A stretch of DNA of 64,000 bases, taken from NCBI RefSeq assembly GCF_054482525.1, contig NZ_CM137006.1. The stretch is one strand, 5' to 3'. Positions 6,788-45,078 of this stretch are shown here, piece by piece; the first letter of the stretch is position 1, and every line of letters begins with the position of its first letter. A program made the translations under genes and the position numbers. The notes beneath the pieces were generated by a model, which was not told the DNA's origin, searched no databases, and saw only the letters and a list, made by a program, of their open reading frames with translations.

Positions 6788-7822
6788 TCAGCCGTTGTCA
6801 GTGTCCAGTGAGTAGTTTTTAAAGCGGATGACCTCCTGACCGAGCCAGCCGTTTATCTCGCGGATCCTGTCCTGTAACGGGATAAGCTCATTGCGGACAA
6901 AGACCTTTGCCACTTTCTCAATATCACCCAGCGACCCGACGTTCTCCGGCTTGCCGCCCATCAACTGAAAAGGGATGCGGTGCGCGTCCAGCAGGTCTGC
7001 GGCGCTGGCTTTTTTGATATTAAAAAAATCGTCCTTCGTTGCCACTTCACTGAGCGGGATAATTTTAATACCGTCGGCTTTTCCCTGTGGGGCGTAGAGA
7101 AACAGGTTTTTAAAGTTGTTGCGGCCTTTCGACTTCACCATGTTTTCGCGAAGCATTTCGATATCGTTGCGATCCTGCACGGCATCGGTGACGTACATGA
7201 TGTATCCGGCATGTGCGCCGTTTTCGTAATACTTGCGGCGGAACAGCGTGGCCGACTCATTCAGCCAGGCAGAGTTAAGGGCGCTGAGATATTCCGGCAG
7301 GCCGTACAGCTCCTGATTGATATCCGGCTCCAGCAGGTGAAACACGGAGCCGGGCGCGAAAGGTGTCGGCTCGTTGAAGGATGGCACCCACCAGTAAACA
7401 TCCTCCTCCACGCCACGGCGGGTATATTTTGCCGGTGAGGTTTCCAGTCTGATGACCTTACCGGTAGTGCTGTAGCGCTTTTCCAGAAACGCATTACCGA
7501 ACACCAGAAAATCCAGCACAAAGCGGCTGAAATCCTGCTGGGAAAGCCACGGGTGCGGGATAAACGTTGAGGCCAGAATATTACGTTTGACGTAAATCGG
7601 TGAGCTGTGATGCACGGCAGCACGCAGGCTTTTTGCCAGACCGGTAAAGCTGACCGGTGGCTCATACCATCTGCCGTTACTGATGCACTCGACGTAATCC
7701 AGAATATCACGGCGGTCGAGTACCGGCACCGGCTCACCAAAGGTGAATGCCTCCATTTTCGGGGCGCTGGCAGTCATTGTTTTCACCGCTGGCTGCGGTG
7801 TTTTCCCTTTTTTCTTACTCAT
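6788..7822 (-). CDS. Q: P2-like portal protein gpQ (344 aa)
   Basis: 344-aa ORF MSKKKGKTPQPAVKT..., size and position (leftward, next to cos) match P2 Q. Confidence 0.92.
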   Translation of the reverse strand: MSKKKGKTPQPAVKTMTASAPKMEAFTFGEPVPVLDRRDILDYVECISNGRWYEPPVSFTGLAKSLRAAVHHSSPIYVKRNILASTFIPHPWLSQQDFSRFVLDFLVFGNAFLEKRYSTTGKVIRLETSPAKYTRRGVEEDVYWWVPSFNEPTPFAPGSVFHLLEPDINQELYGLPEYLSALNSAWLNESATLFRRKYYENGAHAGYIMYVTDAVQDRNDIEMLRENMVKSKGRNNFKNLFLYAPQGKADGIKIIPLSEVATKDDFFNIKKASAADLLDAHRIPFQLMGGKPENVGSLGDIEKVAKVFVRNELIPLQDRIREINGWLGQEVIRFKNYSLDTDNG

Positions 7823-42826: not shown

Positions 42827-42844
42827 GCCAATAAGGGAGAAAAA
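42827..42844 (-). promoter_or_regulatory. Putative BaeR-binding box upstream of mdtA
   Basis: Reverse complement reads TTTTTCTCCCTTATTGGC, close to the BaeR box consensus as I recall it (TTTTTCTCCATDATTGGC); ~55 bp upstream of the mdtA start. Confidence 0.5.
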
Positions 42845-42999
42845 TGGAGGAATTATGAAACACTATCGGGAATCGTCTGAATGGCGGGCACATTTGCGAG
42901 CACGCATCCAGTAATAACACATGAAACTATTTTATCTACGCGTTAGCGATAGACTACGTGCATGGCGAAAGGAGGTAAGCCGATGATTTCAGCGGGACG

Positions 43000-43150
43000 C
43001 TGAAACGGGAAAGCCCCTCCCGAGGAAGGGGCCATAAATAAGGAAAGGGTCATGATGAAGCTACTCATCATCGTGGTGCTCTTAGTCATTAGCTACCCAG
43101 CATACTAAGACTACCAGGGCGGGGGAAACCCCGCTCTACCCTCACTCCTG
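43000..43150 (-). ncRNA. sibB: SibB antisense sRNA (type I antitoxin), approximate boundaries
   Basis: By established ibs/sib organisation the antisense RNA fully overlaps ibs; reverse-strand hairpin plus U-rich tract near 43009-43031 is consistent with its terminator. Confidence 0.5.
43052..43108 (+). CDS. ibsB: Type I toxin IbsB (18-aa hydrophobic peptide)
   Basis: ATGATGAAG... encodes MMKLLIIVVLLVISYPAY; preceded by AAGGAGG-containing leader. Confidence 0.85.
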   Translation: MMKLLIIVVLLVISYPAY

Positions 43151-43329
43151 AAAGTATGCCTTCACGATAAGATTGTCAATCTGCAGGCTTTGCAGTCTGC
43201 GATCCTGCCAGCAAATATTCTTTGCGAGACGTTACGCAATAATCACACTGGAAACTATTTTATCCGCAAGTCAGCGATAGACTGCATACAGGGCGAAAGG
43301 AGGTAAGCCGACGATTTCAGCGGGACGCT

Positions 43330-43480
43330 GAAACGGGAAACCCTCTCCCGGAGAAGAGGGCTTTTAATAAGGAAAGGGTTATGATGAAGCACGTCATCAT
43401 ACTGGTGATACTCTTAGTGATTAGCTTCCAGGCTTACTAAGAACACCAGGGGGAGGGGGAAACCTCTCCCTAACCCTCAC
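43330..43480 (-). ncRNA. sibA: SibA antisense sRNA (type I antitoxin), approximate boundaries
   Basis: Antisense to ibsA by analogy; hairpin at ~43338-43360. Confidence 0.5.
43381..43440 (+). CDS. ibsA: Type I toxin IbsA (19-aa hydrophobic peptide)
   Basis: Encodes MMKHVIILVILLVISFQAY. Confidence 0.85.
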   Translation: MMKHVIILVILLVISFQAY

Positions 43481-43660
43481 TCCTGAAATTATGTCACTCC
43501 GCCCTTAGTGTCAATCGACGGCTCTCCGTTCTTGCGAGGCGAATAGCAAAATTTTCTGCGCCGCCGGGCCTAATTCTGAAAGTTTCTTCGTTTGCTCTTA
43601 TTTCATTGTTGCAGTCGGTATGATACCGGACCTCGATAATTCTCTAAGAAAGGATTTCTT

Positions 43661-44320
43661 ATGAGCGAACAAATCACGTTTGCCACCAGCGATTTTGCCA
43701 GTAACCCGGAACCACGTTGCCCCTGCATTTTGCTGCTGGATGTTTCTGGCTCGATGAGCGGCAGACCTATTAATGAACTTAATGCCGGATTGGTTACCTT
43801 TCGCGATGAGCTGCTTGCCGACCCGCTGGCCTTAAAAAGAGTGGAACTCGGTATTGTGACGTTCGGCCCGGTGCATGTGGAACAACCATTTACCAGCGCC
43901 GCTAATTTTTTCCCGCCCATCCTGTTTGCCCAGGGCGATACACCAATGGGCGCCGCCATTACCAAAGCCCTGGATATGGTTGAGGAGCGCAAACGTGAGT
44001 ATCGCGCCAATGGTATTTCCTATTATCGTCCGTGGATTTTCCTGATCACTGATGGCGCACCAACCGATGAGTGGCAGGCTGCCGCCAACAAAGTGTTTCA
44101 GGGGGAAGAAGATAAGAAGTTTGCCTTCTTTTCCATCGGTGTTCAGGGGGCGGATATGAAGACTTTGGCACAAATCAGCGTTCGTCAGCCTTTGCCACTG
44201 CAGGGATTACAATTCCGTGAACTGTTTAGCTGGTTATCCAGTTCGCTGCGTTCGGTTTCCCGCTCCACGCCGGGAACTGAAGTTGTGCTGGAAGCGCCAA
44301 AAGGCTGGACGTCAGTGTGA
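43661..44320 (+). CDS. yegL: von Willebrand factor A domain protein YegL (219 aa)
   Basis: vWA MIDAS-like motif [11 protein letters not shown]; 219 aa. Confidence 0.93.
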
Positions 44321-45078
44321 GCTGGCGTCTGGTCTATGCATCAACCGTTGGAACGTCGCACATCAGCGCGGACTTGCCTTGCCAGGATGCCTGCCAGATG
44401 CAGGTTGCCTGGTTAAATGACCAGCAGCCATTATTGTCGGTATTTGTCGCTGATGGCGCAGGCAGTGTCTCGCAGGGTGGCGAAGGCGCGATGCTCGCCG
44501 TCAATGAAGCGATGGCTTATATGTCGCAAAAAGTGCAGGGCGGGGAATTGGGGCTTAATGATGTCCTCGCCACGGATATTGTGCTGACCATTCGTCAGCG
44601 ACTTTTTGCCGAGGCAGAGGCCAAAGAATTAGCGGTTCGCGATTTTGCCTGCACATTTCTGGGACTGATTTCATCGCCTGACGGCACCTTGATTATGCAG
44701 ATTGGCGATGGCGGCGTGGTGGTAGATTTGGGTCACGGTCTGCAATTGCCTCTCACGCCGATGGTGGGTGAATATGCCAATATGACGCACTTCATTACCG
44801 ACGAAGATGCCGTTTCCAGACTGGAAACTTACACCAGTACTGAGCGTGCGCATAAAGTTGCAGCATTTACGGATGGTATTCAGAGGCTGGCGTTAAATAT
44901 GTTGAATAATTCTCCGCATGTGCCTTTTTTTACCCCGTTTTTCAATGGACTGGCGTCAGCAACGCAGGAACAACTCGATTTATTACCTGAATTGTTAAAG
45001 CAGTTTTTGTCCGGCCCGGCGGTAAACGAGCGTACCGATGATGATAAAACGTTGGCACTGGCGCTGTGGTTACCATGA
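44317..45078 (+). CDS. pphC: PP2C-like protein phosphatase YegK/PphC (253 aa)
   Basis: 253-aa ORF overlapping the yegL stop; conserved partner of the yegI kinase. Confidence 0.9.

Follow-up and report, generated by a model that had tools for sequence, protein, structure and literature searches.

The 64,000-nt stretch of DNA that we analyzed (the window; contig NZ_CM137006.1 of assembly GCF_054482525.1) contains the already characterized Escherichia coli ibsB/sibB and ibsA/sibA type I toxin-antitoxin pair, a system that is already known. Our results are an annotation-level confirmation of this textbook locus together with one correction. The correction concerns a six-codon reading frame that the initial annotation had placed upstream of the toxin gene in each repeat: it is very probably not a conserved part of the module, arising by a C/T polymorphism at a single position. 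Two curiosities remain, a conserved GGAGG that is followed by no start codon in upstream regions of the ibsA/ibsB type and a C/T pattern that is reciprocal between the two copies in different strains. How chromosomal type I toxin mRNAs stay silent yet activatable is incompletely understood for ibs, and ibsA and ibsB are among the least expressed E. coli genes; a leader element specific to this subclass, if true, would be a small, testable addition.

Identity of the locus and its two modules

Across the locus, 881 bases are 100% identical to E. coli PCN033 (NZ_CP006632.1), and a search of 5,426 complete E. coli genomes found related sequence in 5,419. RefSeq annotates, in order, mdtA on the minus strand, an "Ibs family toxin," ibsA, and then the plus-strand genes yegL, pphC, and yegI. 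This order is shared with K-12 MG1655, in which yegL and mdtA flank sibA/ibsA and sibB/ibsB, and the mdtA-yegL context of the sibA/sibB pair is present here (mdtA upstream on the minus strand, yegL downstream on the plus strand). The intergenic region agrees with that of K-12 in 856 of 887 alignment columns, and the number of ibs copies at the mdtA-yegL locus ranges from 1 to 3 among strains. The tandem ibsB/sibB and ibsA/sibA modules proposed in the initial annotation are thus confirmed by the identity with PCN033, the RefSeq Ibs annotations, the synteny with K-12 (mdtA-sibB-sibA-yegL), and Rfam. All traits that define loci of the Ibs/Sib family (ibsA-E/sibA-E, or SIB or QUAD repeats; Rfam RF00113; Fozo et al. 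2008, Han et al. 2010) are the same in the window: hydrophobic toxins of 18 to 19 amino acids, antisense Sib RNAs that overlap them fully and have promoters of their own, and a tandem arrangement between mdtA and yegL. Relative to K-12, IbsB carries an F15Y difference and the upstream C/T allele is swapped between the two copies.

Repeat unit 1, the ibsB/sibB module including its upstream leader/promoter region and the Sib promoter, spans positions 42917 to 43179 (263 bp), and repeat unit 2, the ibsA/sibA module, spans 43245 to 43514 (270 bp); both were delimited as direct repeats and by alignment to K-12, and the length of about 245 bp given previously was roughly right. The units are 81% identical, with a start-to-start spacing of 328 to 335 bp. 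Each encodes one Ibs peptide on the plus strand, with the lengths originally described: ibsB (43052 to 43108) encodes the 18-aa MMKLLIIVVLLVISYPAY (RefSeq WP_001386901.1, "Ibs family toxin"), and ibsA (43381 to 43440) encodes the 19-aa MMKHVIILVILLVISFQAY (RefSeq WP_010723109.1). Both frames fit the MMK...(I/L/V)n...S(F/Y)xAY toxin type and have their own Shine-Dalgarno (SD) sequence. Their Ibs membership rests on K-12 identity and RefSeq annotation, the peptides being under the 20-residue minimum of the protein-family scan. IbsA is identical to K-12 IbsA, and IbsB is identical at 17 of 18 residues, the difference being Tyr in place of the K-12 Phe, as given in the initial annotation. Tyr15 also occurs in O157:H7, O4:H5, and one Escherichia clade genome, while Leu and Trp occur elsewhere; as judged from these sequences, position 15 of IbsB is simply variable and F15Y is ordinary variation. 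The K-12 Ibs homologues are toxic when overproduced and are repressed by the cognate Sib RNA, as summarized in Han et al. 2010 (PMC2943612, citing Fozo 2008).

An antisense Sib RNA had been expected opposite each ibs gene, and the Rfam model SIB_RNA (RF00113) gives two strong matches on the minus strand that cover both toxin ORFs, at 43037 to 43179 (141.7 bits, E = 1e-30) and at 43366 to 43514 (149.5 bits, E = 1e-32); these scores are 2.5 to 2.7 times the gathering score of 56. Annotation transferred from K-12 places SibB at 43008 to 43143 (5′ end at 43143, full-length 3′ end at 43008) and SibA at 43335 to 43478 (5′ end at 43478, full-length 3′ end at 43335), both on the minus strand. The −35 hexamer TTGACA of each Sib promoter can be read from the minus strand at 43174 to 43179 for SibB and 43509 to 43514 for SibA, where it occupies the first positions of the Rfam model. 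Both RNAs start with G here, in agreement with the reported +1G of SibA and SibB, which are therefore not NAD-capped, unlike SibC, SibD, and SibE (PMC12956327). In K-12 Term-seq data (Adams et al. 2021), the Sib RNAs have very strong 3′ ends at 2153749 and 2153420; these dominant ends map to 43040 (SibB) and 43369 (SibA) in the window, exactly at the complement of the ibs SD sequence, and imply Sib forms of 104 and 110 nt. Each unit encodes an Ibs toxin on the plus strand and, on the minus strand, an antisense Sib RNA that is made constitutively; by covering the toxin ORF and its ribosome-binding site, Sib would keep ibs repressed. The ibsA and ibsB mRNAs have been described as "nearly undetectable" in K-12 (PMC5389530), and across 3,376 RNA-seq samples brought together in one compendium they rank 4503 and 4504 of 4510 genes (PMC10392735).

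The six-codon upstream frame and its distribution

An SD-like AAGGAGG precedes both toxin genes on the plus strand (42969 to 42975 in copy 1, 43297 to 43303 in copy 2). It lies within a 49-nt block, GGCGAAAGGAGGTAAGCCGAYGATTTCAGCGGGACGCTGAAACGGGAAA, found by comparison of the copies at 42964 to 43012 and at 43292 to 43340, and the two blocks differ at one base only, with Y = T (42984) in copy 1 and Y = C (43312) in copy 2. The six-codon ORF ATG ATT TCA GCG GGA CGC TGA (MISAGR, stop; 42983 to 43003, plus strand) is present in copy 1 only, and the equivalent 21 nt of copy 2 (43311 to 43331) begin with ACG and contain no start codon and no upstream ORF (uORF). The initial annotation was therefore correct in assigning an AAGGAGG to each repeat, but the ORF that it assigned to each repeat exists only in the ibsB copy. 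K-12 shows the reciprocal state, with ATG in the ibsA copy and ACG in the ibsB copy. The signals of the ATG copy (AAGGAGG, a 7-nt spacer, and ATG) are as good as they get, and if this stretch is transcribed, translation of the mini-ORF is likely. A full-text literature search for the peptide MISAGR returned unrelated matches only. We also considered a 21-aa ORF at 42921 to 42986 and rejected it as a real gene, as it lacks an SD and K-12 has AGG in place of its ATG.

Among the 5,426 complete E. coli genomes, an exact 41-mer with ATG occurs in 2,934 (∼54%), at 2,998 places and nearly always once per genome, and the corresponding 41-mer with ACG occurs in 4,799, at 7,042 places; the ATG version is found in ∼30% of E. 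coli copies. The longer arrangement of the window, an exact 80-mer with the ATG upstream of ibsB, is present in 66 of these genomes, and the K-12-type 81-mer with the ATG upstream of ibsA is present in 2,221. Every copy carries ACG in O157:H7 NE122 (three copies) and EC21Z-101 (a single copy), and O4:H5 has ACG in the one copy scored, the second of its two copies not matching the search pattern.

We scanned species-representative genomes for the ibs SD/start motif, which gave ibs copies in Escherichia, Citrobacter, Salmonella diarizonae, Kluyvera, Pseudocitrobacter, Phytobacter, Hafnia, and others, with upstream regions of three classes (ibsA/B type, ibsD/E type, and ibsC/Hafnia type). The ibsA/B type comprises 25 distinct sequences with the block, from Escherichia, Citrobacter, and one Salmonella; the ibsD/E and ibsC/Hafnia types, which include ibsC, ibsD, and ibsE, lack it. 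Within the ibsA/B type, E. albertii, E. whittamii, and two Escherichia genomes have ACG as the triplet at the start position, Escherichia sp. E1V33 has AAG, Citrobacter copies have AGA, CGG, AAA, or AAG, and Salmonella diarizonae has CCG. The stop codon of the uORF is also changed, from TGA to TGG, in several Citrobacter copies. ATG at the start triplet is absent from all non-E. coli homologues examined, and no ATG, GTG, or TTG lies 4 to 12 nt downstream of GGAGG in ibsA/B-type copies with ACG, AAG, or AGA; neither the start codon nor the frame is conserved among orthologues.

Because the start triplet varies across species, ATG is in the minority among E. coli copies, and ibsC, ibsD, and ibsE lack the block, these comparisons exclude a conserved uORF and identify the frame as a strain polymorphism that is not a family feature. 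ACG appears to be the ancestral triplet and ATG to be a polymorphism within E. coli. The mini-ORF arises where a C/T change turns ACG into ATG 7 nt past a conserved and normally start-less GGAGG, and this strain carries the T allele only upstream of ibsB. About half of E. coli genomes retain one ATG copy and no more, and the allele may conceivably have some selective value.

The start of ibsA and ibsB transcription

The predicted folds of the ibs leaders contain two hairpins on the plus strand. Hairpin 1 (UUUCAGCG-GGA-CGCUGAAA; 42987 to 43005 in copy 1, 43315 to 43333 in copy 2) contains most of the uORF, and hairpin 2 (43013 to 43032 in copy 1, 43341 to 43360 in copy 2), which has one compensatory CG-to-UA pair, corresponds on the opposite strand to the Sib terminator (in copy 1, the SibB terminator hairpin). 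The stem of hairpin 1 extends to 7 to 8 bp (UUUCAGC(G)/(C)GCUGAAA) only in the ibsA/B type, whereas the other classes pair CAGC/GCUG only. In six Citrobacter sequences, a U-A pair of this stem is replaced by U-G, so that the ibs-sense RNA stays paired there and the Sib sense has C-A.

In our literature search, we found no experimental transcription starts for ibsA or ibsB: the supplements of Adams 2021 give 3′ ends only, the Salmonella IbsA papers give no 5′ ends, and the RNA-seq compendium supplements make no mention of ibs or sib. The mapped starts of ibsC and ibsD, which we deduced from the T7 primers GCAGCATGGGGCTG and GTCAGCAGGGGGCTG of Han et al. 2010 (PMC2943612), lie at the first bases of hairpin 1, and a −10-like hexamer (AACAAT, TACGAT, or TATAAT) stands 7 to 8 nt before hairpin 1 in the ibsD/E and ibsC/Hafnia types. 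At that position the ibsA/B type has TAAGCC, AAAGCC, or TCAGCC, without the critical final T. Alignment of the 25 ibsA/B-type copies instead points to a conserved TA(G/C/A)A(C/G)T ∼13 nt upstream of GGAGG, with an invariant G two bases before it. In the window, this candidate ibsB promoter would be the −10-like TAGACT at 42950 to 42955 (plus strand; invariant G at −14), with its counterpart in copy 2 at 43278 to 43283. The element has no good −35, which fits very low expression. A consensus promoter scan found no plus-strand sigma-70 promoter, though it missed the Sib promoters too and is uninformative here. We also rejected the idea that the T allele creates a −10 (GATGAT) where ibsC and ibsD have theirs: it would lie 2 nt from hairpin 1, compared with 7 to 8 nt elsewhere, and has a poor −35.

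For transcription to begin where it does in ibsC and ibsD, at hairpin 1, the block would have to lie upstream of the ibsA/B start, as a promoter-proximal element acting at the DNA level or as a mere part of the repeat, and neither GGAGG nor ATG would ever be in ibs mRNA. The primer-extension starts of ibsC and ibsD (PMC2943612) agree with this arrangement, as do the homology among all five K-12 copies, which begins at hairpin 1, and the consensus scan that found no plus-strand promoter. It is nonetheless rather doubtful in our estimation: ibsA/B copies lack the final T of the −10-like hexamer that the other classes have before hairpin 1, and this arrangement would leave unexplained both an invariant GATTT and the three additional base pairs in the ibsA/B-type stem of hairpin 1. 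The UUU:AAA pairs of the ibsA/B hairpin 1 require a transcription start upstream of the UUU. On the basis of the upstream −10-like TAGAnT, the extended stem, and the U-G pair kept in the ibs sense, we therefore somewhat favor a longer leader for ibsA/B-type mRNAs, with GGAGG ∼10 nt from the 5′ end. The GGAGG block would then lie inside this longer 5′ leader, and the copies that carry ATG could have their mini-ORF translated, if the leader is made.

The start-less GGAGG and possible effects on toxin translation

The initial annotation had further suggested that the upstream ORF might couple or gate translation of the toxin. As a general feature this fails, since the ATG is present in one copy here, in the other copy in K-12, and in none of the non-E. 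coli homologues examined. The stop codon of the uORF (43001 to 43003) lies 48 nt upstream of the ibsB AUG (43052), with hairpin 2 in between; this gap and the stable hairpin therefore leave no room for coupling of the overlap type. Sib leaves the uORF uncovered, the SibB 3′ end being at 43008. When a ribosome on the uORF was mimicked by holding positions 42969 to 43016 single-stranded, the predicted mean unpaired probability of the ibsB SD and AUG was 0.40, compared with 0.49 for the long leader and 0.53 for the short leader; in nascent-length RNAs, the same measure was 0.63 with the ribosome mimic, 0.71 for the long leader, and 0.70 for the short leader. Predicted accessibility of the ibs ribosome-binding site is thus barely changed, and gating has no computational support, though such folding predictions are weak. 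The idea resembles mok/hok coupling in the hok/sok system, in that reading of an upstream frame would be required for toxin translation or would tune it. The mok frame is conserved and overlaps hok, and its translation is the target of Sok, whereas the mini-ORF in the window stops 48 nt short of ibs, is not covered by Sib, and lacks its start codon in most copies and in all other species.

A narrower version would make the uORF functional in particular strains: the T-allele copies (ibsB here, ibsA in K-12) would translate the six-codon ORF, and ribosomes would open hairpin 1 and terminate beside hairpin 2, modulating ibs translation or mRNA stability, so that the C/T polymorphism would be a natural switch for toxin expression. 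The perfect SD, 7-nt spacing, and ATG are what such a mechanism needs, the ORF sits inside hairpin 1, a likely promoter lies upstream of the 49-nt block, and many E. coli genomes carry the T allele, almost always in a single copy; an effect of this kind could also be missed by folding predictions. We nevertheless consider it very unlikely, given that ∼70% of E. coli copies and all other species lack the start codon, that the 48-nt gap and stable hairpin precede the ibs AUG, that predicted ribosome-binding site accessibility is essentially unchanged, and that ibsA/ibsB mRNAs are almost undetectable in K-12 (PMC5389530, PMC10392735).

What the ibsA/B type does conserve is GGAGG itself, kept in 24 of the 25 copies (Escherichia and Citrobacter), the Salmonella copy having GGAAG. 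The bases that flank it vary on both sides (AAAGGAGGTAAGCC, AAAAGGAGGTCAGCC, AAAAAGGAGGAAAGCC, ACGGAGGTAAGCC, and CAGGAGGTAAGCC). The RNAalifold consensus of the 25 leaders consists of a 3-bp GGC/GCC stem with GAAAGGAGGUAA in its loop, hairpin 1, and hairpin 2, and single-sequence minimum free energy (MFE) folds pair GGAGG with the CCUCC of hairpin 2. CCUAC in E. albertii and GGAAG in Salmonella break the GGAGG:CCUCC pairing and are uncompensated. A pairing of GGAGG with the 3′ CUCCU of ibs mRNA was rejected, being only 5 bp long and predicted by no fold.

It is possible, and we propose it only tentatively, that the start-less GGAGG is a conserved element near the 5′ end of the longer ibsA/B-type mRNA, with the uORF as a by-product. 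Its role could be ribosome binding or structural, as a 5′ stabilizer or standby site like STAB-SD or as the partner of the CCUCC in hairpin 2, and it would be compatible with a known locus in which the frame arises by polymorphism. The retention of the motif while its flanks and the start triplet vary is consistent with such a role, as are its place in the loop of the conserved GGC/GCC stem in the consensus and its pairing with hairpin 2 in the MFE folds. The conserved −10-like TAGAnT, with its G at −14, lies ∼13 nt upstream, and the UUU:AAA extension of hairpin 1, which needs an upstream start, and the U-A to U-G change, with pairing kept only in the ibs-sense RNA, likewise suggest that the motif is transcribed. 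However, the 25 copies show no compensatory changes for any pairing of the motif, and they come from a few related genera, such that the conservation could partly reflect relatedness.

The nearest named precedent, by resemblance only, is STAB-SD, a 5′ mRNA stabilizer of Bacillus thuringiensis cry3A (Agaisse and Lereclus 1996, as summarized in PMC4113751). [quoted passage not shown] AAGGAGG/GGAGG shows strong complementarity to the 3′ end of 16S rRNA and, in copies with ACG, AAG, or AGA, has no start at initiation distance, as in STAB-SD. STAB-SD acts by blocking RNase J1, however, and to our knowledge this nuclease is absent from E. coli. Another possible likeness is to the type I system tisB/istR-1, in which an upstream ribosome-loading element, the standby site alluded to in bioRxiv 10.1101/2025.05.26.656083, also lies in the toxin leader. 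In tisB mRNA this site is unstructured, and the antitoxin RNA blocks it, whereas Sib does not cover GGAGG here. A fuller model, which we regard as unlikely in its entirety, would be that ibsA/B-type mRNAs, unlike those of ibsC, ibsD, and ibsE, carry a 5′ extension of ∼25 nt in which the start-less GGAGG binds the 30S subunit or pairs with hairpin 2, setting mRNA stability or translatability; under this model, natural C/T variation, common in E. coli, would retune toxin expression copy by copy.

Start-less GGAGG and a reciprocal C/T allele

Both ibs copies in the window carry a GGAGG (positions 42971-42975 and 43299-43303). This normally start-less element is kept across Escherichia and Citrobacter in 24 of the 25 distinct ibsA/B-type upstream regions aligned (loci L005-L077), the flanking bases being variable among these copies, and it resembles either a STAB-SD or a standby element. 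Within the surrounding 49-nt block (42964-43012 versus 43292-43340), the two copies differ solely by a single C/T, which makes the first triplet of a six-codon reading frame ATG in one copy and ACG in the other. The alleles are reciprocal between strains, with T in ibsB and C in ibsA of PCN033 and the converse in K-12 (locus L001), and nearly all genomes carrying the T allele have exactly one T copy. These patterns suggest that the tandem copies have undergone gene conversion with each other, or that the mutation has recurred.

Upstream classes and a candidate ibsA/B promoter

By upstream region, ibs genes fall into three classes (K-12 loci L003 and L004; loci L006, L021, L054, L056, L064, L065, and others): the ibsA/B type; the ibsD/E type, marked by AACAAT; and the ibsC/Hafnia type, which has either TACGAT or TATAAT. 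The three become homologous exactly at leader hairpin 1 (42987-43005 in the ibsB copy), where the ibsC/D transcription start has been mapped. The ibsA/B copies have a −10-like TAGACT (42950-42955 and 43278-43283) beside an invariant G at −14, with the hexamer variants TAGAGT, TACAGT, and TAAAGT in other genera; neither site has a recognizable −35. We consider TAGACT a candidate weak ibsA/B promoter, separate from those of ibsC and ibsD/E.

Unit number, Ibs variation, and Sib 3′ ends

The mdtA-yegL locus holds one to three ibs/sib units depending on the E. coli strain (O157:H7, O4:H5, and EC21Z-101; loci L085, L086, and L087, respectively), and Ibs is variable at residues 4-5 (K/I/W/R/H) and at residue 15 (F/Y/L/W). 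In K-12 Term-seq, Sib 3′ ends fall predominantly at 2153749 and 2153420, which correspond to minus-strand positions 43040 and 43369 of the window, opposite the first base of each ibs SD. They define Sib forms of 104 and 110 nt, shorter than the 136 and 144 nt of the annotation. A further 3′ end, weak and orphan (K-12 2153897; window 42892, minus strand), lies between sibB and mdtA.

Neighboring features

Upstream of mdtA, the minus strand carries TTTTTCTCCCTTATTGGC (42827-42844), which may resemble the box that BaeR binds in the mdtABCD promoter. A plus-strand 21-codon reading frame (42921-42986), whose TGA overlaps the ATG of the six-codon frame (ATGA), is probably a chance occurrence rather than a real gene, since it lacks an SD and K-12 has AGG in place of its ATG. 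Downstream of the repeats, the plus strand (43661-45078) carries yegL, with a vWA domain, then the protein phosphatase gene pphC and the protein kinase gene yegI, in the same order as in K-12, with the yegL stop overlapped by the pphC start.
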